From the NCBI GenBank assembly GCA_902610845.1, contig CACLXJ010000001.1, forward strand, positions 35,721-99,720: a stretch of DNA of 64,000 nucleotides, written 5' to 3'. Source of the DNA: an uncultured Alphaproteobacteria bacterium. Its GTDB lineage: Bacteria > Pseudomonadota > Alphaproteobacteria > HIMB59 > GCA-002718135. The translations under genes and the position numbers were made by a program. Below, piece after piece: positions 3,054 to 63,984 of the stretch (within the stretch, counting starts at the first letter, position 1; the number at the start of each line of letters is the position of its first letter). Below the pieces are notes generated by a model. The model worked only from the letters and a program-made list of their open reading frames with translations, was not told where the DNA came from and searched no databases.

Positions 3054-3829
3054 TGCAGCCTGCTGTAATTAATATTTTTGAAAAAGCAGTTAAGAAAGCT
3101 GGTAAAATATTATTAAGAGATTTTGGAGAATTAGAAAATTTACAAATACAATCTAAATCAGTTGGAGATTTTGTAACAAATGCAGATATTAAAGTAGAAA
3201 AAACACTTTTAGAAACTCTAAAATATTATTATCCAGATTATACTTATATAACTGAAGAAACTGGTGAAATAAAAGGTGATGAAAACACAATTATTATTGA
3301 CCCAATTGATGGAACATCAAATTTTATACATGGAATACCTCATGTTGGAATAATCGTTGCTAAAATGACAAATGGTGAAATCACAGACGGTGTGATTTAT
3401 AATCCAATTTTAAACGAATTTTTTTGGAGTTCGAAGGGTAAAGGTTCGTGGAGTAATAATAGCAGACTTCGAGTATCAAACAGGCAAATTTTTTCAGATT
3501 GCTTGATAGGCACTGGTCTTCCTTTTGGAGAGAGAATTTATAAAAACTATTTAAGTGAGGTTGATGAAATCCTAAAATCATCTGCAGGAATAAGAAGACT
3601 AGGTTCTGCAGGTCTTGACCTGGCTTATGTTGCTTCTGGTAAATTAGATGGTTTTTGGGAAAAAGATCTAAATTTATGGGATGTTTCAACAGGTGTTCTA
3701 TTAGTTAAAGAAGCTGGGGGAAAAATTTCTAAAATAGATGGAAATGCATGGGAGGTAAATTCTCATGATTTAGTAGCTTCAAATAATAAAATTCATAATG
3801 AATTAGTTAAAAAACTTACTTTACTTTGA
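3053..3829 (+). CDS. suhB: Inositol monophosphatase family protein (SuhB-like)
   Basis: 258 aa. Has the IMPase motifs 'IIDPIDGTSNF' and 'WDVSTGVLLVKEAGG'. Its ATG overlaps the efp stop. Confidence 0.85.
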   Translation: MQPAVINIFEKAVKKAGKILLRDFGELENLQIQSKSVGDFVTNADIKVEKTLLETLKYYYPDYTYITEETGEIKGDENTIIIDPIDGTSNFIHGIPHVGIIVAKMTNGEITDGVIYNPILNEFFWSSKGKGSWSNNSRLRVSNRQIFSDCLIGTGLPFGERIYKNYLSEVDEILKSSAGIRRLGSAGLDLAYVASGKLDGFWEKDLNLWDVSTGVLLVKEAGGKISKIDGNAWEVNSHDLVASNNKIHNELVKKLTLL

Positions 3830-3853
3830 AATCTATATAAATATAAGACAGTC

Positions 3854-4081
3854 ATGAAAAAAGATATACATCCTAAATATAATGAAATAAACGTTGTTAT
3901 GACTGATGGATCTACTTTTAAAACTAGATCTACTTGGGGTAAAGAAGGTGATACTCTTAAATTAGAAATTGATCCTAAATCTCACCCTGCATGGACTGGT
4001 GGTAAAGCTGGTCTTAATGAGTCTGAAGGACAGGTAGCTAGATTCCAAAAAAGATTTAAGGGTCTAAAAATTAATAAATAA
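3854..4081 (+). CDS. rpmE: 50S ribosomal protein L31
   Basis: 75 aa. Starts 'MKKDIHPKY' and contains 'HPAWTG', which is typical of L31. Confidence 0.9.
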
Positions 4082-4270
4082 TTATTTAAAAAACTTTTCA
4101 GCATTAAGTTTTAAATTTTCCTTTTTTTTTATCTCATCTTGAACTCTTAGTATTTCAGTTTGAAGTTCAGAAATATAGTTTTGTAAATCCTCAACACTGA
4201 AATCATCCAAATTTAATATTTTAACTGTCTTTTGTTTTTCATCAACTTCAAAAAAATCTGTCATAGTCAT
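4082..4270 (-). CDS. Small coiled-coil protein, DUF1192-like
   Basis: 62 aa. 'LDDFSVEDLQNYISELQTEILRVQDEIKKK' matches the alphaproteobacterial DUF1192 pattern as I recall it, so the assignment is from memory. Confidence 0.5.
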   Translation of the reverse strand: MTMTDFFEVDEKQKTVKILNLDDFSVEDLQNYISELQTEILRVQDEIKKKENLKLNAEKFFK

Positions 4271-4314
4271 ATTTTGTTATATATTATTTTTTGATTATAT
4301 TATATGAGCCAGTT

Positions 4315-4857
4315 ATGAAATATCCTTTAATGCCAAAAGCAACAGCGATATGGTTAGTAGAAAATACAGCTTTATCGTTTGATCAAATAGCCGAATTCTG
4401 TGGATTACATGAATTAGAGGTTCAAGGAATAGCTGATGGAGAAGTTGCTGTTGGTATGAGAGGTTATGATCCAATTGATAATAATCAATTAACAAAAGAA
4501 GAAATTGAAAGATGTGAGAAAGATAATGCATCTCGTTTAAACCTCATTAAGTCTGATGTGATTGAGGATTTACCGCCAAGAAAAAAAGATTCTAAATATA
4601 CACCTCTTTCTTTAAGACAAGAAAAGCCATATGCTATTTTGTGGCTTATAAAAAGATATCCAACTGAATTAAGTAGTTCTCAAATTGCAAAACTTACCGG
4701 CTCAACAAAAAATACGGTAGAGGCTGTAAGAAATGGTACGTACAGAGAAGCAATTCTTGAGGCAAAGAGTCCAATGGATGTTGGTTTATGTACTTATAAC
4801 GATCTAGAGAGAACTTTAAATAGAACTAGAACAAAAAAAGTAGATCAAGAAAATTAA
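4315..4857 (+). CDS. DUF1013 family protein (conserved alphaproteobacterial)
   Basis: 'PLMPKATAIWLVENTALSFDQIAEFCGLHELEVQGIADGEVA' is the characteristic DUF1013 N-terminus. I prefer the ATG at 4315 over the table's TTG at 4291. Confidence 0.6.
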   Translation: MKYPLMPKATAIWLVENTALSFDQIAEFCGLHELEVQGIADGEVAVGMRGYDPIDNNQLTKEEIERCEKDNASRLNLIKSDVIEDLPPRKKDSKYTPLSLRQEKPYAILWLIKRYPTELSSSQIAKLTGSTKNTVEAVRNGTYREAILEAKSPMDVGLCTYNDLERTLNRTRTKKVDQEN

Positions 4858-5366
4858 TAATTTTTTATAATGTAATTTAGGTAATAGAACATCAAAATCA
4901 TCCAAAATAATACCATTGAAATAATAAAAATCTGAAAGTTATATATTTTTATAACTCCGATAGGTTCACCAAGATAATAGGTTAAAGGTCCTAAAACTCC
5001 ACTTAAAAAAATTCCTAAAATTTTATAACTTTTAAAAAAAGGAAGAATTTCATCAAAAAGAGTACTAAAACTAAACCACAAAACAATCATCCATAATGGT
5101 AGAGTGCCAAGTTTAGCAATAGTTTCAAAATCGTAAATTTGGAAATAAACTAATAAAGTATCAAAAATATATCCTGGAACTGAAATCAAAAGTGAAATCT
5201 TAATAAATTTTTGTTTATTATGATTAAAATACAAATAAGTTAGTAGGAAAATAATTCCAACCCAAATGCCCAGCATAGGATTAGAAAATTTTGTTTCACC
5301 AAATACACAGGCTAACCAAGTTAGTTGATAGCCAGTTAAGACTAAAAAAACTTTTAGTTTTTGCAT
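4854..5366 (-). CDS. Polytopic membrane protein, DUF2878-like
   Basis: 170 aa and highly hydrophobic with about 5 TM segments. It is the last gene of the photolyase-cfa cluster, where DUF2878 proteins occur in other bacteria. Confidence 0.5.
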   Translation of the reverse strand: MQKLKVFLVLTGYQLTWLACVFGETKFSNPMLGIWVGIIFLLTYLYFNHNKQKFIKISLLISVPGYIFDTLLVYFQIYDFETIAKLGTLPLWMIVLWFSFSTLFDEILPFFKSYKILGIFLSGVLGPLTYYLGEPIGVIKIYNFQIFIISMVLFWMILMFYYLNYIIKNY

Positions 5367-5368
5367 TT

Positions 5369-6562
5369 TTATTTTTGAATTAAAAAATGAGAAACATCAG
5401 TAGAGTTATTTGAGAAACCTGTTTCACAATAAGAGAAATAAAATTCCCACATTCTTTTAAATTTAATATCGAAGCCAAACTTTGATAAATCAGTCCAAGA
5501 TTTTTGAAATTGTTTGTTCCATATTTCTAGTGTTTTTGCGTAAGAACCACCAAAGCTTAAACTTTCAATGCATTTTAATCCCACCTTTTTGGCCGAATAT
5601 TCAAATTGTTTTTTGGTTGGAAGCATGCCGCCAGGAAAAATATATTGTTGAATAAAATCTGGTCTATTTTGATAATCTTTAGCCTTCTTTTCATCAATTG
5701 TTATAACTTGTAGTGCAGCAATCCCATTATTATTGAGCGAATTAAATATTGTATCAAAGTAATTATGCCAATATTTTTTTCCAACTGCTTCAAACATTTC
5801 AATCGAAACAATATTTGAATATTTTTTTTTGATATCCCTATAATCTCTGAATATAACTGATACTTTTTCAGATAAACCTTCATTTTGAATTTTTTCAGAA
5901 GCATATTCGTATTGTTCTTTAGAAATAGTTATAGCATCAACCGAACAATTATAATTTTTCGCTACAAATGATGAAAACCCGCCCCATCCACATCCAATTT
6001 CTAAAGTTTTAGAATTTGAGTCTAATGATAAAGTTTCAGCAATCTTTCTATATTTGTTAAATTGTGCATCCGGTAAACTGGTATTCTTATTATCAAAAAG
6101 AGCAGAAGAATAGGTCATAGTTTTATCTAACCACTTTTCGTAAAAATTATTTCCTAAATCATAATGATATTTAATGTTTTTTTTACTCTGTGATTTTGAA
6201 TTGTTATTTAAAAAATGTTTTAATTTGGCAAAAGTTGCAAAAAAAAGATTAGTATTTATACTTTGTAAAAAATAATACTCATTTTTGTGAGAAAGTAGTA
6301 ATAAATTAGTTAAATCTGGGCTTGAAAAGTAACCATTCATATAGGCTTCTGCAAAACCTACAGAACCTTTTTTAAAAATTAAATTGAGAAAATTATAATT
6401 ATTAATTGTAATGCTTGCAGATATATCCTCCTTTTTTCCGACAAAAACTCTCTCCTCGCCAGTAGGAAATTGAACTGTTAATTTTCCATATCGAATTTTA
6501 GATAAAAAGTTTACTAATAATTTTTCGACAGTTTTATCAAAATTTGTTTTAAAAAAATTCAT
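5369..6562 (-). CDS. cfa: Cyclopropane-fatty-acyl-phospholipid synthase family SAM methyltransferase
   Basis: 397 aa. Contains the SAM-binding motif 'LEIGCGWGGF', plus 'YDLGNNFYEKWLD' and 'FIQQYIFPGGMLP', which are typical of the CFA/mycolic acid synthase family. Confidence 0.85.
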   Translation of the reverse strand: MNFFKTNFDKTVEKLLVNFLSKIRYGKLTVQFPTGEERVFVGKKEDISASITINNYNFLNLIFKKGSVGFAEAYMNGYFSSPDLTNLLLLSHKNEYYFLQSINTNLFFATFAKLKHFLNNNSKSQSKKNIKYHYDLGNNFYEKWLDKTMTYSSALFDNKNTSLPDAQFNKYRKIAETLSLDSNSKTLEIGCGWGGFSSFVAKNYNCSVDAITISKEQYEYASEKIQNEGLSEKVSVIFRDYRDIKKKYSNIVSIEMFEAVGKKYWHNYFDTIFNSLNNNGIAALQVITIDEKKAKDYQNRPDFIQQYIFPGGMLPTKKQFEYSAKKVGLKCIESLSFGGSYAKTLEIWNKQFQKSWTDLSKFGFDIKFKRMWEFYFSYCETGFSNNSTDVSHFLIQK

Positions 6563-50487: not shown

Positions 50488-51459
50488 CAGCTATTTATCA
50501 AAGATATAAATGTACATATAGATCCAATATTGCCGAAAAAAACAGCAATTATTACACATGGTCACGCAGATCACGCCCGATTTGGACATGATCATGTTAT
50601 TGCTACTAGGCAGACAATAGACATAATGAAAATTCGCTACGGAGATAAATGTGCGAAGAAATTTACTCCTCTTAGATACGGGCAAAAATACTCGATTAAA
50701 AACTATGATTTTACTCTTTACCCTGCGGGACATATTTTAGGAAGTGCTCAAGTTTTAATTGAAAAAAATAATCACCGTTTGGTCATCACAGGTGATTATA
50801 AAGTAGGAAAAGATGAAACATGTAAAAATTTCAAACTGGTTAAATGTGATACTTTAATTACTGAAGCAACATTTGGATTACCCATATTTCAACATCCAGA
50901 TCCCAAAGATGAAATTCAAAAACTCATACGATCTGTAAAGATAAATAACAATAATTGTCATATTGTTGGTGCGTATGCACTGGGTAAAGCACAAAGAGTA
51001 ATGAACCTTTTACGCCAGCAGAAATATAATGAGACAATTTATATTCATGGCTCTCTAGAAAAGTTATGCCAATATTATTCAAAAGAAAAAATTAATATTG
51101 GAAAGTTTGAAAAAGTTTCTTCAAAGGATAAAAGTTTTTATGAGGGTAAAATAATTATTGCACCGCCTTCAGCATTAAAGGATCGTTGGTCAAGACGATT
51201 TCCTAATCCTATTATTTGCATGGCAAGTGGATGGATGACCGTTAAGCAAAGAGCAAAACAACAAGGTATTGAATTGCCATTAGTTATTAGTGATCATAGC
51301 GATTGGAATGAATTACTAGATACAATTAAAAAATCAAAGGCGAAAAATATTCTTATTACTCATGGTCAGGAAGATGCATTGGTTTATTTTTGTAAGAAAC
51401 AAAATCTTGTTTCAAAGCCCCTTTCCATCCAAGGAAGAAGTGATGAGGAAATAGAATGA
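50470..51459 (+). CDS. Ligase-associated DNA damage response exonuclease (metallo-beta-lactamase/beta-CASP fold)
   Basis: 329 aa. 'AIITHGHADHARFGH' is the MBL HxHxDH motif. It is divergent from the helicase and coupled to the ligase gene. Confidence 0.8.
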   Translation: MDFINHQLFIKDINVHIDPILPKKTAIITHGHADHARFGHDHVIATRQTIDIMKIRYGDKCAKKFTPLRYGQKYSIKNYDFTLYPAGHILGSAQVLIEKNNHRLVITGDYKVGKDETCKNFKLVKCDTLITEATFGLPIFQHPDPKDEIQKLIRSVKINNNNCHIVGAYALGKAQRVMNLLRQQKYNETIYIHGSLEKLCQYYSKEKINIGKFEKVSSKDKSFYEGKIIIAPPSALKDRWSRRFPNPIICMASGWMTVKQRAKQQGIELPLVISDHSDWNELLDTIKKSKAKNILITHGQEDALVYFCKKQNLVSKPLSIQGRSDEEIE

Positions 51460-53024
51460 AAAAATTTTCTTCCTTACTTCACAATTTGATTTTAACACCA
51501 AGTCGAAATACCAAAATTAAATTACTTCAAGATTATTTTAAAATACTTGATATCAACCGCTCATATGCGCTTGCAATTTTATCTGACCAACTTTCATTTC
51601 AATTTATTAAAGCATCTAAACTCAGAGAGCTTGTCTATAAACAAGTAGATCAACATTTATTTGATTACTCATATGATTATGTTGGGGATTTAGCAGAAAC
51701 AATATCATTAATTTGGCCAACAAAAAAAGAGGGTAAATCTCAAAATTTATATACCTTAATAGAAAATATAAAAAAAATTAAAAAGTCTGAAATTAATACA
51801 GAGTTTAGTAAAATTTTGAGCGAAATATCTAATAACGAAAGGTGGACTTTAATTAAAATTTGCACGGGTGGATTGCGAATTGGAGTCTCGGAAAGATTAG
51901 TAAAAACGGCCTTAGCTGATCAGTATAACAAATCTGTGAATGAGATTGAAGAAATTTGGCATGGTTTAGAATTTCCATATGAAAATTTATTTAAATGGTT
52001 AAAAAATGAAACATCAAAACCAAAAATAGATTTTAAAAAATTATTTCATCCTATGATGCTAGCTAACCCTATTGATGAGGAAAAAGATTTTAAAAGATTG
52101 AACGCTAATGAATTTCAAGCAGAATATAAATGGGATGGAATTAGGGTTCAGCTTATGGTTTCATCAAAAAGTGTTTCACTGTACTCAAGAACAGGTGATA
52201 ATATATCATCTGCATTCCCAGAAATAATTGAAAATACTAAAGGTGATGCGGTTATTGACGGAGAATTACTTGTAGGAGAAAATTTTAAACCCTTTGGTTT
52301 TAATGATCTGCAGCAAAGGTTAAATAGAAAAAAAACTTCAAAAGATCTACAAAAAAAATATCCTGTTTTCATACGTGCCTATGATATTCTTTTTTACAAA
52401 GGGAAAGATCTTCGAAAATTATATCTTTTTGAGAGAAGAAAATATTTAGAAAAATTTCAAAAAGAAAATAAAACTAATCAAATTGATTTATCTTCAATCA
52501 TTAATTTTTCAACTTGGAAAGAATTAACTAAATATAAAAATAATTTAAATGACGATTTAAATGAAGGTGTAATGATTAAACTTAAAAAAAGTGAATATTT
52601 ACCAGGAAGAAAAAGGGGGAATTGGTACAAATGGAAAAAAAATCCAAAGCTAGTTGATGCTATTTTAATGTATGCTCAACGAGGACACGGAAAAAGATCA
52701 TCTTACTATTCTGATTTTACTTTTGGTGTATGGAAAGAAAATGAATTAGTGCCAATAGGAAAGGCTTATTCGGGTTATACTGACAAAGAGCTTTTAGTAT
52801 TAGATAAATTTATAAGAAATAATACTATCAATAAATTTGGTCCCGTAAGAGAGGTAAAAAAGGAAATTATATTAGAAGTGGCCTTCGATGATGTATTTCC
52901 AAGCACTAGACATAAATCAGGTGTCGCTATGCGTTTTCCTCGAATTTATAGAATTAGGTGGGACAAGCCAACAAATGAAGTGCTTTCAATTGAAGAATTT
53001 AAGAAAGAATTTAAAATAGGTTAA
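51456..53024 (+). CDS. ATP-dependent DNA ligase
   Basis: 522 aa. Adenylation motif I 'EYKWDGIRVQ' (KxDG), 'DGELLV' (motif III), 'EGVMIK' (motif IV) and 'WYKWKK' (motif V). Its start overlaps the exonuclease stop (ATGA). Confidence 0.88.
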   Translation: MKKFSSLLHNLILTPSRNTKIKLLQDYFKILDINRSYALAILSDQLSFQFIKASKLRELVYKQVDQHLFDYSYDYVGDLAETISLIWPTKKEGKSQNLYTLIENIKKIKKSEINTEFSKILSEISNNERWTLIKICTGGLRIGVSERLVKTALADQYNKSVNEIEEIWHGLEFPYENLFKWLKNETSKPKIDFKKLFHPMMLANPIDEEKDFKRLNANEFQAEYKWDGIRVQLMVSSKSVSLYSRTGDNISSAFPEIIENTKGDAVIDGELLVGENFKPFGFNDLQQRLNRKKTSKDLQKKYPVFIRAYDILFYKGKDLRKLYLFERRKYLEKFQKENKTNQIDLSSIINFSTWKELTKYKNNLNDDLNEGVMIKLKKSEYLPGRKRGNWYKWKKNPKLVDAILMYAQRGHGKRSSYYSDFTFGVWKENELVPIGKAYSGYTDKELLVLDKFIRNNTINKFGPVREVKKEIILEVAFDDVFPSTRHKSGVAMRFPRIYRIRWDKPTNEVLSIEEFKKEFKIG

Positions 53025-60129: not shown

Positions 60130-60148
60130 AAGGGGCTTAAAGCCCCTT
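60130..60148. terminator. Bidirectional hairpin terminator between ccrM and the exonuclease gene
   Basis: 'AAGGGGCTT-A-AAGCCCCTT' is flanked by A8 on the left. It separates convergent genes. Confidence 0.6.
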
Positions 60149-60151
60149 AAA

Positions 60152-61501
60152 TTAAATTGCTTTAAGAAATTGTTCGTACTGCGTGAGAGGGGTACTATCA
60201 ACCCCTGGATTTTTCTCTTTGAAAGTCTCAAAGTCGACAATTGCTTGATGAAGAGATCTAGGTTGATTATCATTAACGTGAAGTTTGTTATGAATATCTT
60301 TCTCTACTTGATTAATTACATTAGCACTCAACAAAGATCGATTTTCTTCAAAGATTAACCTATTTGCAAGCTCAGTAAATCGAGGATCCTCAAATTGAGA
60401 AGCTATTATAGCTCTCTCATTCCAATCAGAATTATGAAAAACTTTCATAAGATTTTGATCAAACTGTTCAGGAAAACCACCACTAAAGATCTTTTCTTCT
60501 ACTGTGGTGCCTTCAGGCCAATCTTTTTCAGTTAAATCTGCTGCTAATTGAAGAGCATCTTTAAAAGATTTGTTAGCTCTAATTTTCCTGGCTCTCTCGA
60601 ACAACACTTCTTCAGAAATATCATATTGGATAAATTTGATATAACTAAGGTCAAGTAGGATTGGCATTTTATTATTTTTGATAAAATAAAATGGCGATGA
60701 TTTTTTCCTTACAATTTTAGTTAACTCTTTCGCTGATAGATCTAAATAATCATCTGGATCAAATTTTAAGTCAAAGGTAAAATAACCAGATCCATACTTT
60801 AAACAATTTGTTAAAAGTAACTTTTGATCATAAAAAGGTGAATGACAAAAAACTAAATTTTGATTTATAAATTGTTCAATTCCTTTCTTAGATGTCATTT
60901 GCAAACAATTTTCAAAAAATTTTGGATCATTTTTTTTTATTTTATGTAATAATCCTACACATGCTAGCACATCGCTTTCTGCTTCATGAGCGTTCGTATG
61001 ATCTAATTGATTTGCTGAAGATAGACTTTCAAGTCGAAAATCAGGTTTACCTTTATCGTTCATATTAACTTTAATCGAAGTAGGACTAAATGTGTATGAA
61101 GATCGAGCTACATTAAGTGTATCAGCTTCTTGATTCCCCATGGTTTGGCAAATATAAACTGGCAACAAACATTGGTAAAATTGGCTTCTCAGAATTTCAC
61201 GATCAAATGTTAAAGAATTATGACCTACGATATAACTCGGAGTATGCTTCATTAAATAATTATGAATTTCTCTAGTCATTTCAAAATAAGACATATTAGA
61301 ATTCCTTAAATCAGTGATTTTTAGCTTGTTAGTCGCTAAAGCAAAAATGCTTGGAATCAATCCGGGTTTTAACCCGGTTTGAAGATTAATTTCGTCAATC
61401 AATGTAAAAGATTGATCATAAGTTTTAGCTGAAAATGTTAGAGCATAATCAAACCTTGTCTGCAGACCGGTTGTTTCGGTATCAAAAAAAGTAAATTTCA
61501 T
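60152..61501 (-). CDS. Exodeoxyribonuclease I (SbcB)-like DEDDh 3'-5' exonuclease
   Basis: 449 aa. 'FFDTETTGL' (Exo I motif), 'GHNSLTFD' (Exo II) and 'GKPDFRLESLSSANQLDHTNAHEAESDV' (Exo III, HxxxxD) are collinear with E. coli ExoI, as is the ExoI-like C-terminal region ('IKNNKMPILL', 'FSGGFPEQFDQ'). SD 'gaggagg' lies upstream. Confidence 0.8.
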   Translation of the reverse strand: MKFTFFDTETTGLQTRFDYALTFSAKTYDQSFTLIDEINLQTGLKPGLIPSIFALATNKLKITDLRNSNMSYFEMTREIHNYLMKHTPSYIVGHNSLTFDREILRSQFYQCLLPVYICQTMGNQEADTLNVARSSYTFSPTSIKVNMNDKGKPDFRLESLSSANQLDHTNAHEAESDVLACVGLLHKIKKNDPKFFENCLQMTSKKGIEQFINQNLVFCHSPFYDQKLLLTNCLKYGSGYFTFDLKFDPDDYLDLSAKELTKIVRKKSSPFYFIKNNKMPILLDLSYIKFIQYDISEEVLFERARKIRANKSFKDALQLAADLTEKDWPEGTTVEEKIFSGGFPEQFDQNLMKVFHNSDWNERAIIASQFEDPRFTELANRLIFEENRSLLSANVINQVEKDIHNKLHVNDNQPRSLHQAIVDFETFKEKNPGVDSTPLTQYEQFLKAI

Positions 61502-62190
61502 GCTGCCTCCTCAAACTTATTTGATCCAGAAATTAAGTTGTATCGTGGCAGAACGCCATTTTGAGATTTATATTTTTCCAGAAAATGATTTTCCCAATAT
61601 ACTCTCTTATCTTCAAAAGGTATGAAAGTATATTTTATACAATCAAATACCCAGCTCTTACGTTGGTCTTCTTTTGCACGATCATATATTGAAGCTCCTC
61701 GTCCATAGTACACAGTTTCTGAACCTTGAAGATATTGATAAATACCAGGTGCTTTAGGTAGGTCCTTAGGATCATGCTTAAAATGCTCAAACTGAGGTAC
61801 TATTGGAATTACAATCTCTTTAGTTTCTCGATTATAGCTAACTGGAATTCTTGCAAGTTCCCTTTTTCCTTCAGCTAATTTTCGTAAACAAGAAAATTGA
61901 CTTACTAATCTTTTACAAGATAGATACATAGGCCCAAAACCTTTTCGTCTACGATGATCAGATGAAAAAGCTAAATTTTCACAAGATGCTTCTTCATGAG
62001 AACCTTTTATGAAAAGTTGAGAAGACCAATTGTAATCTTGATGATCTCTTTTGCATGTTATAGTTTTAAAATTATGAAGACCGGCTAGCTGAGTAATGCT
62101 TGAATTGAAATAAATTCCATTTTTTCGTACACTAACTGAAGCAGCTTTAGGATCAAAATAAGTATCTAATCGACATATAAATTTATCCAT
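61498..62190 (-). CDS. Two-domain protein: unrecognised N-terminal domain plus C-terminal UvrC/Cho-like GIY-YIG nuclease domain
   Basis: 230 aa. 'PGIYQYLQGSETVYYGRGASIYDRAKE...YWENHFLEKYKSQNGVLPRYN' matches GIY-x9-Y(I/Y)G-x-A-x2-(L/I)-x2-R ... E-N-x-(L/F)-(I/L)-x2-Y...P-R-Y-N of the UvrC N-domain. A strong SD 'aaggaggt' lies 7 nt upstream, and the gene overlaps the exonuclease start (ATGA). Confidence 0.7.
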   Translation of the reverse strand: MDKFICRLDTYFDPKAASVSVRKNGIYFNSSITQLAGLHNFKTITCKRDHQDYNWSSQLFIKGSHEEASCENLAFSSDHRRRKGFGPMYLSCKRLVSQFSCLRKLAEGKRELARIPVSYNRETKEIVIPIVPQFEHFKHDPKDLPKAPGIYQYLQGSETVYYGRGASIYDRAKEDQRKSWVFDCIKYTFIPFEDKRVYWENHFLEKYKSQNGVLPRYNLISGSNKFEEAA

Positions 62191-62415
62191 TTAATTTACC
62201 TCCTTACTTTCATCATTTACTTTTTCAAAAAGTATAAATCTTTGATCTGGGTTATTAAAATTGAAAATAATTTCAAAATCTTCAATTGATATTGGTGAAA
62301 TATAAAAATTTTCATCTAAATTTTCTTCTATTTCTCTCACCATTTGTGTTTCGCCCATTTTATAAATTATTCTGGTTGAGCGAATTCCAGAAATTATTTT
62401 AACTTCATCAGTCAT
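62191..62415 (-). CDS. Small acidic protein (hypothetical, 74 aa), first gene of the nuclease operon
   Basis: SD 'aaggag' lies upstream. Its stop codon abuts the GIY-YIG start codon. The protein is rich in E and D, and I recognise no motif. Confidence 0.45.
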   Translation of the reverse strand: MTDEVKIISGIRSTRIIYKMGETQMVREIEENLDENFYISPISIEDFEIIFNFNNPDQRFILFEKVNDESKEVN

Positions 62416-62485
62416 TTTCTGACTCCTTTGTTAATTATTATTTTTTGTTAGACATCATTGTCATAAAAGCGTATTACCTTTAAAT

Positions 62486-62517
62486 ATGTAATGGTTAAAC
62501 ATTACATACCATTACAT
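62486..62517. promoter_or_regulatory. Operator-like inverted repeat in the divergent promoter region
   Basis: 'ATGTAATGG-N14-CCATTACAT' is a perfect 9-bp inverted repeat. A third 'CATTACAT' copy sits inside the spacer at 62500-62507. The site lies 10 nt upstream of the 485-aa ORF start. Confidence 0.4.
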
Positions 62518-62526
62518 TTTTAAACT

Positions 62527-63984
62527 ATGAGTGAGAGACTTTTTAAAACTAACTGGGTAAAATTTTCAGATTATGAGATTAGTTATGGGAGAATTAAGCC
62601 AAAAAAAGGATCAAAAATGATTCATTATGATCCAATAGCTGAAAGTGAAAAATTTAAAAAAAGCTCAAACACGGTTTATGACCAAATATATAAAATTAAA
62701 GAAAATAATCAGACAGATTTAAAAGAGTGGTTACGATTTGCAAAAAAATGGGGACTGCCTTGCACGCTTTTACACAACGTTGATGAAATAATTCTAGCTC
62801 CAAGATATCTCGCTTTTCAAAATAGCCAGATTTCTGAAACTGTCAGAGATCATTTAACAAACAAAATGGATAAGGTAAATTTTATTGTTCATAATTTTGA
62901 ATATGAAGTAACTAAATTAAATTCAAAAATTCAATGGGTAAGTGAGAAAAATAAAAAATTACTAAATAAATATAGAGTACAAAAAGTTAATTATTTTGAA
63001 TCTGATTTAAACCCTAATGATCCAACAGATTTAAACTGGCCTTATTCAAATGTAGTACATCTATGCCCACAACAACTTATATATAAGTATTTTAATGGAA
63101 AATGGGAAATTAGAACTAATTTTTTGACAGTTAAAAAACTAAATAAGAAAGCTAAACCAGGAGATATAATTGATAAAAAAAATGTAGTCGAGGGATACCT
63201 AACTCCAGGTTATTTTAAAATAACAGATTCAATAAATGAAGATAATGATGAAATTGAAACTCTAAGTGTAAGTATATCTTCGACAGGAAAAAGAAAATTT
63301 AATCCATTTTATTTAGGAAAACATTTTATCTCTAATTACAGAAATAAAAAAATTGAAACCGTCTATGATTATCCTCATGAGTTTACTAAATATTTTCCTG
63401 GTATGTTACAAGATGAGACATCAGAGGAAAAACATGCCAGAAATATTGAAGAGTTTTTTTGGCCATTTCCAGTTAGTGAAAAATTTCATAGAAATTATGC
63501 AGAAGAAGGCTACGAGCTTGGAGTGTTAGCCATAAACATTAAAATGTTTTTTATAAGACTAAAAGAAGCAAATAAACATATAAGATTGTTAAAAAATAAA
63601 AATGAAAAAAACTATCCAAATCGATATAATATAATTTATCGCGATTTGGAAAAATCGCTAATTAAATTTACATCAAGATTATTACTTACTTTTTCAAAAG
63701 ATAAAGACCGCAAATATAGTATATATTCACCTTCATTAATTGGTTATATAGGTCATATAATCCTCCAAGATATTACAAGTAAATATTCTCCAAGATTTTG
63801 TATAGAATGTGAAAGACTGATTTCTAACCCTGCAAAACCTGATAGCCCATATTGTGATGATTCAACATGTGGCAACAGACATAGAGTAAGGAGAACAAGA
63901 AAAAAAGCAAAGCTCAAAAAATTGTTAGATAAAAAAGAGATATCTAAAAAAGTTTATATTAATAAACTTAGAGAAATAGATTAA
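62527..63984 (+). CDS. Large orphan protein with C-terminal CGNR-type zinc finger and basic tail
   Basis: 485 aa. The C-terminus 'CIECERLISNPAKPDSPYCDDSTCGNRHRVRRTRKKAK' fits the C-x2-C...C-x4-CGNR-x-(R/K)-rich pattern of zf-CGNR. I recognise no family for the first ~430 aa, and no obvious SD is present. Confidence 0.55.
   Translation: MSERLFKTNWVKFSDYEISYGRIKPKKGSKMIHYDPIAESEKFKKSSNTVYDQIYKIKENNQTDLKEWLRFAKKWGLPCTLLHNVDEIILAPRYLAFQNSQISETVRDHLTNKMDKVNFIVHNFEYEVTKLNSKIQWVSEKNKKLLNKYRVQKVNYFESDLNPNDPTDLNWPYSNVVHLCPQQLIYKYFNGKWEIRTNFLTVKKLNKKAKPGDIIDKKNVVEGYLTPGYFKITDSINEDNDEIETLSVSISSTGKRKFNPFYLGKHFISNYRNKKIETVYDYPHEFTKYFPGMLQDETSEEKHARNIEEFFWPFPVSEKFHRNYAEEGYELGVLAINIKMFFIRLKEANKHIRLLKNKNEKNYPNRYNIIYRDLEKSLIKFTSRLLLTFSKDKDRKYSIYSPSLIGYIGHIILQDITSKYSPRFCIECERLISNPAKPDSPYCDDSTCGNRHRVRRTRKKAKLKKLLDKKEISKKVYINKLREID

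Follow-up and report, generated by a model that had tools for sequence, protein, structure and literature searches.

A four-gene unit at positions 60152-63984 of the analysed DNA was rated as a nuclease cassette with its own regulation that belongs to the flexible genome. The DNA, referred to here as the window, is a 64,000-nucleotide stretch from an uncultured Alphaproteobacteria bacterium (contig CACLXJ010000001.1, positions 35,721 to 99,720). With a probability of about 0.5, the unit is an accessory, horizontally exchanged cassette in which a switch of the mobile-element type controls an operon of two nucleases, with a role most probably in genetic conflict. Its components come from known superfamilies (GIY-YIG, ExoI and the CGNR-type zinc ribbon), and their composition matches no named system in PADLOC 2.0.0 or in the searched literature.

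The listing of open reading frames (ORFs) gave three genes on the minus strand and one on the plus strand. The first gene of the operon encodes a small protein of 74 amino acids (aa; 62191-62415, minus strand), the second a 230-aa GIY-YIG protein (61498-62190, minus strand) and the third a 449-aa exonuclease of the ExoI/SbcB family (60152-61501, minus strand). The divergent gene encodes a putative regulator or switch protein of 485 aa (62527-63984, plus strand). The stop codon of the 74-aa gene abuts the ATG of the 230-aa gene at 62191/62190, and the 230-aa and 449-aa genes are joined by an ATGA overlap, read as 'tcat' on the plus strand at 61498-61501. The Shine-Dalgarno sequences AAGGAG, AAGGAGGT and GAGGAGG are located ahead of the three operon genes. 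The operon ends at an intrinsic terminator (60130-60148, minus strand), a GC hairpin with a T-run situated 21 nt past the stop codon of the convergent ccrM gene, and at its other end a control region of 111 nt (62416-62526) separates it from the regulator gene. The tight coupling of three minus-strand genes with strong Shine-Dalgarno sequences, the hairpin between operon and ccrM and the spacer with a perfect inverted repeat ahead of a divergent ORF had been noticed in a first-pass annotation; all were confirmed by the ORF listing, the terminator scan and the reading of the sequence.

Relatives were compared on contigs labelled L001 to L114, the coordinates after each label being local to that contig. 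The trio of small protein, GIY-YIG protein and exonuclease was found in 7 lineages, in which the identity of the GIY-YIG protein to that of the window ranged from 99% down to 25-26% (L008 74%, L101 62%, L102 60%, L007, L103, L104 and L106 38%, L017 28% and L111 26%). The gene calls of GIY-YIG protein and exonuclease share the identical 4-nt overlap in every lineage. A divergent homolog of the regulator accompanies the trio in five lineages, namely the window type (including L008), L102, L007/L104, L106 and L111. This is in agreement with the co-occurrence of the four genes that had been proposed, and the genes are conserved together as one co-inherited unit. The three cassette protein families are extremely rare, with 7, 10 and 2 clusters among 5.8 billion proteins.

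Of 80 species-representative genomes of the HIMB59 type, in which CcrM is 77-97% identical, none carried any of the four cassette genes, and ccrM itself was present in all of these 80 relatives. The gap between the convergent genes ccrM and MatE (contigs in the range L019-L079, equivalent to the window from 60109 onwards) ranged from 9 bp to more than 10 kb among the relatives. In 7 genomes the junction is nearly empty, with a gap of 9-19 bp. Other genomes hold different cargo at this site: an autotransporter, or a giant two-partner-secretion (TPS/FG-GAP) protein accompanied by its ShlB transporter and by a periplasmic binding protein, plus small genes of a histidine phosphatase, a rhodanese and unknown products. 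In L111-L114 the cassette adjoins dapB instead of ccrM. Because the 80 relatives lack the genes and both junction gap and cargo vary, the cassette is a rare insert in a hypervariable flexible-island hotspot; the expected variability between strains was thus observed. At the cassette ends no direct repeats or target duplication were detected, and no tRNA, Rfam family or GC anomaly was found. The closest genomes are single amplified genomes (SAGs) of HIMB59-type 'uncultured Alphaproteobacteria' and not SAR11 in the strict sense, so the SAR11 framing of the first-pass annotation was abandoned. Island biology in HIMB59 has been described as recombination-driven, and the setting of the cassette fits this description (PMC10734472).

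Exchange by recombination was evident within the cassette. Comparison of the window with L008 gave a DNA identity of 91-99% in the flanking genes and of only 67-76% over the whole GIY-YIG gene, with sharp edges. The synonymous divergence (dS) was 1.23 for the GIY-YIG gene and about 0.17 for its neighbours. The ratio of nonsynonymous to synonymous divergence (dN/dS) was 0.11-0.54 over all four genes, indicating purifying selection. The GIY-YIG gene is an old allele swapped in by recombination. Positive selection on this gene was considered and rejected, its dN/dS being 0.17 at a dS of 1.23. A different exchange was found between L007 and L106, in which the nuclease operon is near-identical and the regulator (24% identity) together with the whole spacer has been replaced exactly at the ATG of the small gene. 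This swap, together with the trio of L017, which has no CGNR-family neighbour, shows that the trio is the core of the unit and that regulator and operator form an exchangeable control cassette.

The 449-aa protein matched the Pfam families RNase_T (31.6 bits) and Exonuc_X-T_C (45.5 bits), each above its cut-off, which for the ExoI C-terminal domain (PF08411) is 27 bits. The best match in the Protein Data Bank (PDB) was E. coli ExoI (E 1.4e-20). Residues D7/E9, D100 and H172/D177 align with the stretches HDYET, RFDDE and NAHDAMAD of E. coli ExoI, which we take to hold its catalytic residues D15/E17, D108 and H181/D186. All five were invariant among 10 relatives, so that the protein has both the DEDDh residues and the C-terminal domain specific to ExoI, and the ExoI-like assignment made earlier holds on the two Pfam families. 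It is, by sequence, a divergent DEDDh 3'-5' exonuclease of the ExoI family and not the housekeeping ortholog, since it scored 148.2 bits on the NCBIfam ExoI equivalog NF008746, under the cut-off of 260 bits, and canonical ExoI (P0017) scored 523.7 bits. The relatives from other cassettes reached 108-159 bits. With only 10 clusters among the 5.8 billion proteins, the family does not behave as a core gene.

An A9 homopolymer lies in the exonuclease gene (60930-60938, minus strand; T9 on the plus strand). Two independent metagenome assemblies (L009:2453-3803 and L012:982-2332) have A10 at this tract, resulting in a frameshift that splits the gene into ORFs of 191 and 248 aa and leaves the GIY-YIG gene intact. 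Slipped-strand phase variation and decay are possible causes of the difference, as is an error of assembly at the homopolymer. Exonuclease homologs at 51-52% identity were also found outside a GIY-YIG operon (L014:7995-9425 and L016:2011-3360). Their divergent neighbour of 267 aa (L014:7163-7966 and L016:1093-1923, both on the minus strand) contains the GIY..YIG-like string 'PGIYFITEKKNNTLLYIGV'; its assignment as a GIY-YIG protein was rejected, as neither Pfam nor hhalign gave significance.

The 230-aa protein consists of an N-terminal family-specific domain of ~135 aa (61786-62190, minus strand) and a C-terminal UvrC/Cho-type GIY-YIG domain (aa 136-230; 61498-61785, minus strand). The landmarks of the latter are Y151, Y161, G163, R171, E200, N218 and the 'LPRYN' tail. 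Y151, G163, R171, E200 and N218 were invariant in 8 sequences down to 25% identity, and Y161 was kept in 7 of the 8, with N in L111. The catalytic set is therefore conserved in the homologs. In the PDB, the profile of the family had no matches other than N-terminal domains of UvrC (E 0.017; UvrC chain residues 5-88). The best Foldseek match of the structure model was T. maritima UvrC (1ycz; probability 0.99, target-normalised template modelling (TM) score 0.61, E 0.054), the GIY-YIG region being modelled at a predicted local distance difference test (pLDDT) value of only ~70-85. On the Pfam GIY-YIG family PF01541, with a cut-off of 22.6 bits, the L007 member scored just over it (22.8 bits), the L017 member 20.1 bits, and the window protein gave no hit. 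The NCBIfam UvrC model matched the protein with just its first ~40 positions (E 0.011). The protein is not UvrC proper: it has 230 aa against ~600 aa, and library profile scans found no UvrB-interacting, RNase-H-like or (HhH)2 (helix-hairpin-helix) parts. The evidence at family level (profile, fold and the Pfam hit of L007) is consistent and supports a predicted UvrC/Cho-type GIY-YIG nuclease, as had been assigned earlier, although the window protein itself has no Pfam hit.

The N-terminal domain is conserved across the GIY-YIG family, with G25 and N29 invariant, and had no match in sequence searches of Pfam, PHROG, PADLOC or the PDB, so that profile searches did not place this unassigned part in a housekeeping family. 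It is presumed to serve in target recognition or partner binding. A fold reading was rejected, because the AlphaFold pLDDT of this domain was mostly below 60 and the fold hits were meaningless.

The 74-aa protein is acidic, with an isoelectric point (pI) of 4.34. Every operon with its upstream end on the contig starts with a gene of 65-81 aa, the sequence conservation of which is weak and limited to an N-terminal K-I-[IF]..R.T.[IV]I motif. Scans of Pfam, NCBIfam, PHROG and PADLOC returned no family hits, and no relatives were detected outside the cassette. The first-pass annotation had described a small acidic protein as a possible inhibitor or adaptor. The acidity stands for the window protein; a function as acidic inhibitor or DNA mimic was rejected, since the pI is not conserved across the cassettes (4.3, 9.0, 9.6 and 5.4). 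A basic ORF of 70-82 aa follows the exonuclease gene in three lineages (L017:3892-4104, L102:3271-3519 and L111:452-688), the L111 copy being 48% identical to that of L017 and 40% to that of L102. Possibly this ORF is a fifth gene of the cassette. The window type lacks it; there the terminator and ccrM come directly after the exonuclease gene.

The 485-aa protein is composed of a conserved N-terminal domain (W10..Y16..YDP..WGLP), a lineage-specific insert of ~200 aa, a C-terminal helical region and a ribbon. Family alignment located the latter as a four-cysteine CGNR-type zinc ribbon (C425, C428, C443 and C448; nt 63799-63906, plus strand) with a basic tail. The four cysteines were invariant or nearly so in 43 relatives, and the string 'CGNRHRVRR' is present. 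The Pfam match of the window protein to zf-CGNR was weak (20.5 bits, under the 24-bit cut-off); zf-CGNR was detected in 11 of the 43 relatives (best E 1.3e-5) and DUF6076 in three. A literature search for 'DUF6076' returned no hit. When 1.84 billion representative proteins were searched exhaustively with a profile, 99 relatives were obtained at E <= 1e-3. They are mostly 330-460 aa long, with an N-terminal domain WWRF..YE..YDPW..GLLG and a C-terminal region ending in the four-cysteine ribbon. The family profile matched PDB entry 3h0n (ABATE plus CGNR) with an E value of 0.0044 over 3h0n residues 59-187, an alignment that reaches upstream of the zinc finger; no Pfam ABATE (PF07336) hit was obtained with the window protein. 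For Jann_2411, the protein of this entry, its authors proposed a DNA-binding transcription regulator (PMC2954205). The structure model of the window regulator, built with 3 sequences, had a pLDDT of 39.6 and a predicted TM score (pTM) of 0.26 and was discarded as unusable for a fold assignment.

Three distant members of the regulator family were placed in genomic context (L105:5592-10392, L107:631-3091 and L109:962-3908). Those of L105 and L107 lie directly upstream of a tyrosine integrase gene and face a small gene of the HTH_17 (AlpA/Xis) type. In L105 the gene of a DUF3631 protein is next in the HTH_17 operon; the L107 contig ends before this point. The L109 member faces a 67-aa gene, which is followed by an AAA_25 ATPase gene. 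An integrase gene (int) and a repressor on one side with xis/alpA and replication genes on the other is the layout of a master switch, of the Stl type of Staphylococcus aureus pathogenicity islands (SaPI). The distant members mark small modules resembling integrative elements, and this association of the family appears to be undescribed. The earlier label of 'orphan' for the 485-aa protein was accordingly replaced: it belongs to a family of ~100 clusters tied to integrative elements and is part of an exchangeable regulator/operator cassette. The window type is itself not an integrative element, as integrase, excisionase, replication genes and att or target duplication were found neither in the cassette nor in its flanks.

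The divergent spacer contains perfect inverted arms of 10 nt (ATGTAATGGT/ACCATTACAT), or arms of 17 nt at 94% complementarity. A motif search placed three operator-like half-sites at 62486-62517: ATGTAATGG at 62486-62494 (plus strand), ATGTAATGT at 62499-62507 (minus strand) and again ATGTAATGG at 62509-62517 (minus strand), the last one ending 10 nt ahead of the regulator ATG. The exact 9-mer ATGTAATGG has just these 2 occurrences in the 64-kb window. Two or three copies of the core GTAATG(G) lie in each spacer of the window type, L102, L007/L104, L111 and even the GC-rich L109, lineages across which the regulators are 21-49% identical. This clustering was significant against shuffled sequences (P <= 0.002 per spacer), the background of the 7-mer being 0.18 per kb. 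As GTAATGG was picked from the window, the four other lineages are independent tests. The sites always adjoin the start codon of the regulator, and the window and L111 have the same layout (plus-strand site, 12 nt, minus-strand site, 10 nt, minus-strand site). L106, which has the other regulator allele, is devoid of GTAATGG sites. The clustering of the arrays beside the regulator gene across lineages and their absence with a different allele argue strongly, by comparison, for the 485-aa protein as a sequence-specific DNA-binding regulator that would at least control its own expression. The best sigma-70-like promoter match for the operon is ATGACA-16-AATAAT (62437-62464, minus strand), with 10 of 12 positions; it is a consensus match only, and the region has no more matches of this kind than expected by chance.

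The cassette was also compared with known defence systems and with mobile DNA, using the models of PADLOC-DB v2.0.0 for the former. Only the exonuclease gave a PADLOC match, to 'RTasSbcB', full-length and with 221.7 bits. The 230-aa, 74-aa and 485-aa proteins had no PADLOC hits, and the relatives of the regulator none of significance. Canonical ExoI scored 193 bits on the same model, so the match was rejected as evidence for defence. Membership in a DRT (defence-associated reverse transcriptase) system was likewise not obtained, as neither the ORFs nor the Pfam calls near the cassette, in the window and in L001-L013, included a reverse transcriptase. The DRT10/UG17 papers were rejected as a precedent, because they deal with the sbcB of the host and not with one encoded by the system. 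The best RTasSbcB match was reached by another exonuclease, P0016 on L015 (313.7 bits), a true close relative of the model that is 30% identical to the protein of the window. At its locus (L015:6551-8947 and 3390-6215) it comes after a pair of HTH_3 and Peptidase_M78 genes (ImmR/ImmA-like) and lies beside an operon of the cyclic oligonucleotide-based anti-phage signalling system CBASS (SMODS, E2 and SAVED).

Phage records yielded only fragments of E. coli sbcB at the ends of Stx prophages. In viral contigs, the profile of the GIY-YIG family had no hits, and that of the exonuclease family had hits that were remote and partial only; plasmids searched with a relative of the regulator gave nothing. 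No literature was found on a named system of this composition, on 'SbcB-like' with defence or on 'GIY-YIG' with 'SbcB'. PADLOC detected no complete known system either, which agrees with the earlier statement that no named system has this gene content.

The role in conflict is most likely to be anti-phage or anti-plasmid defence, or exclusion by a mobile-element remnant, rather than housekeeping repair; this is a prediction, favoured because of the rarity of the cassette, its location in a hotspot, the cassette-wise swapping of nuclease alleles and of regulator alleles, and the link of the regulator family to integrases. The 485-aa ABATE/CGNR-like zinc-ribbon protein would bind the GTAATGG sites, regulate its own gene and set the expression of the divergent operon. 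A signal would flip this switch; by analogy with the integrase neighbourhood of the family, a protein of a phage or mobile element or DNA damage could serve as such. The GIY-YIG enzyme, guided by its own N-terminal domain, would then nick or cut the target DNA, and the ExoI-like enzyme would load at the 3' end and degrade the strand. The interpretation given in the first-pass annotation was therefore supported in part. The co-inherited accessory unit with conserved catalytic residues stood, and the acidic inhibitor, the orphan regulator and the SAR11 setting did not. The defence island suggested there stays a prediction, with no defence genes at its flanks and an unspecific RTasSbcB match.

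Several observations weigh against the conflict cassette as read here. The evidence is computational, and both nuclease activities are predicted. No integrase, target-site duplication or tRNA marks the insertion, no known defence genes flank it, and what the hotspot carries in other genomes is surface or secreted proteins and no defence systems. PADLOC sees the exonuclease alone, through a model that canonical ExoI matches too. As the searches of phage records, viral contigs and plasmids brought up no relative, the link to mobile elements comes from the distant regulator homologs only. The trio of L017 has no CGNR-family neighbour, and L111 carries N at the position of the YIG tyrosine. The half-sites lie upstream of the best promoter match of the operon, which makes activation as plausible as repression, and neither for the N-terminal domain nor for the regulator is the structure model good enough to be used.

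The main rival explanation is an accessory repair module, in which a Cho-like GIY-YIG enzyme incises near lesions or stalled structures, the ExoI-like enzyme removes the damaged strand and the regulator responds to damage, as a split form of the fusion proteins of DnaQ exonuclease and GIY-YIG domain (Cho type). In sequence and in fold, the nuclease domain indeed matches UvrC N-terminal domains alone. The weak NCBIfam matches are UvrC and PRK07883, the 'DEDD exonuclease domain-containing protein', a fusion that carries a GIY-YIG domain. The 230-aa protein has an 'E-x-FLEKYK...LPRYN' tail, which is typical of UvrC/Cho, ExoI is an enzyme of repair and recombination, and the core genes nearby include uracil-DNA glycosylase (UDG), RNase HII and an ATP-dependent ligase. 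However, the cassette is extremely rare and variable between strains. The nuclease has been replaced allelically as a whole gene and the regulator cassettes are exchangeable, both of which mark conflict or mobile genes and not repair genes. In addition, the 230-aa protein has no further detected domain besides GIY-YIG and the unassigned N-terminal domain, and the regulator family is tied to integrases and not to SOS genes. A repair function was considered unlikely. A somewhat lower probability was assigned to a mobile element, reduced to a remnant or a miniature form, with nucleases that act for the element itself and not in protection of the host, for example by post-segregational addiction or by homing-like spread, in which empty sites would be cleaved, resected and then copied into by recombination. 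It would account for the master-switch position of the regulator family in integrase-bearing elements, facing an Xis/AlpA and replication operon, for the presence of the cassette at two or more unrelated chromosomal sites and for the mosaic recombination of the cassettes; free-standing GIY-YIG homing endonucleases also exist. Yet no integrase, transposase, terminal repeat or target duplication was found, nor any copy in the phages, viral contigs and plasmids searched. Homing endonuclease genes are normally single ORFs and not regulated operons of three genes, and the very low prevalence in a highly recombining population argues against an efficient drive.

The window-type cassette lies directly beside ccrM, and CcrM is carried by all hosts seen, which raises the question of a restriction-like system with methylation by the orphan CcrM (GANTC) as the mark of self; the GIY-YIG enzyme would cut unmethylated incoming DNA and the exonuclease would degrade it. 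Type II enzymes of the GIY-YIG class exist, and Hpy188I was among the weak fold hits, but with a match probability of 0.12. All 80 relatives without the cassette possess ccrM, and the cassette is also found beside dapB or other genes, so that the adjacency to ccrM reflects the hotspot and not a functional pair. A type II restriction-modification system of the Eco29kI or Hpy188I kind was also not supported, as no cognate methyltransferase is co-inherited and the cassette of L111 lies away from ccrM. A large dedicated switch protein is, besides, not normal for restriction enzymes, and this explanation was judged highly improbable. Chance adjacency of a housekeeping sbcB and unrelated neighbours has almost no probability left. 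ExoI is a common housekeeping enzyme and the 449-aa protein has its domain set, but the protein scored 148 bits against an equivalog cut-off of 260 and a canonical score of 524, its family has 10 clusters only, the gene is missing at this locus from the 80 related genomes, and the 4-nt overlap with the GIY-YIG gene recurs in every lineage. Chance adjacency is thus refuted by the co-conservation data.

A bolder extension of the conflict reading, which is regarded as unlikely, is that the CGNR-ribbon, DUF6076-like proteins are a new class of integrative-element master switch (Stl/CI-like), with a GTAATGG array conserved from GC-rich bacteria to AT-rich marine Alphaproteobacteria, and that this switch was co-opted as an infection sensor releasing a nick-and-resect anti-phage system. 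If true, such a system would be new in the otherwise defence-poor, streamlined plankton of the ocean. The cassette is a concrete candidate for the way in which populations of such cells maintain functions of conflict. Should the nuclease pair act as proposed, it would be a split, regulated counterpart of the Cho-type fusions of exonuclease and GIY-YIG domain. The most useful by-product is the regulator family with its putative operator and its link to integrative elements. It offers a handle on an unstudied family of ~100 clusters, with GTAATGG as the likely DNA motif and a likely role between int and the xis/replication operon. The defence systems known from these bacteria are few: in the study of HIMB59 islands, a BREX-like system in two metagenomic islands was the only defence function inferred (PMC10734472).

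Elsewhere in the window, a 522-aa ORF (51456-53024, plus strand) was assigned by synteny with L001 to an ATP-dependent DNA ligase (DNA_ligase_A_N/M/C). The core region around it also contains UDG, an SLT transglycosylase, RNase HII and CcrM.

In comparison with known enzymes, the 449-aa protein shares with E. coli ExoI (SbcB) the DEDDh residues, the combination of exonuclease domain and ExoI C-terminal domain and a comparable length. It differs by an identity of only ~23-30%, by its score below the equivalog cut-off (148 against 260 bits), and by a gene that shares its operon with a nuclease and is accessory instead of core. The likeness to RTasSbcB, which PADLOC lists with the DRT systems, is a full-length match to the hidden Markov model (HMM); it gives no basis for counting the protein among a defence clade, and no reverse transcriptase is near the cassette. 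With the UvrC N-terminal domain, Cho and the PRK07883-type fusions, the 230-aa protein has in common the catalytic residues GIY/YIG/Arg/Glu/Asn, the 'LPRYN' tail and the best fold match (1ycz). The PRK07883-type fusions further resemble the cassette in combining a GIY-YIG nuclease with a DEDDh exonuclease, here as two coupled genes and not as one fusion. UvrC comprises GIY-YIG, UvrB-binding, RNase-H-like and HhH parts, of which the last three are not detected in the 230-aa protein. The cassette differs from this whole group also in the unique N-terminal domain of ~135 aa, in an exonuclease of the three-domain ExoI type and not of the ε/DnaQ type, in its rarity and strain variability and in its own regulator. 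During the breakdown of host DNA by phage T4, EndoII (DenA, a GIY-YIG enzyme) acts together with exonucleases such as DexA. No specific homology to these proteins is detectable and no phage context was found for the cassette, but the logic of a GIY-YIG nickase that makes entry sites for an exonuclease is the same.

The regulator was compared with the ABATE/CGNR regulators (Jann_2411, 3h0n; PF07336 and PF11706) and with DUF6076. It is similar in having a helical region followed by a four-cysteine, treble-clef ribbon of the CGNR type with a basic tail, and it differs in being 2-3 times larger, with another conserved N-terminal domain and the insert of ~200 aa. Unlike the modules governed by the master switches of integrative elements and phage-inducible islands, the window cassette has no integrase, xis or replication gene and its operon encodes two nucleases, DNA binding and sensing being predicted only. 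The likeness to these switches is seen in the distant family members, which hold exactly that position, in the operator repeat array of the spacer and in the swapping of regulator and operator as a unit.

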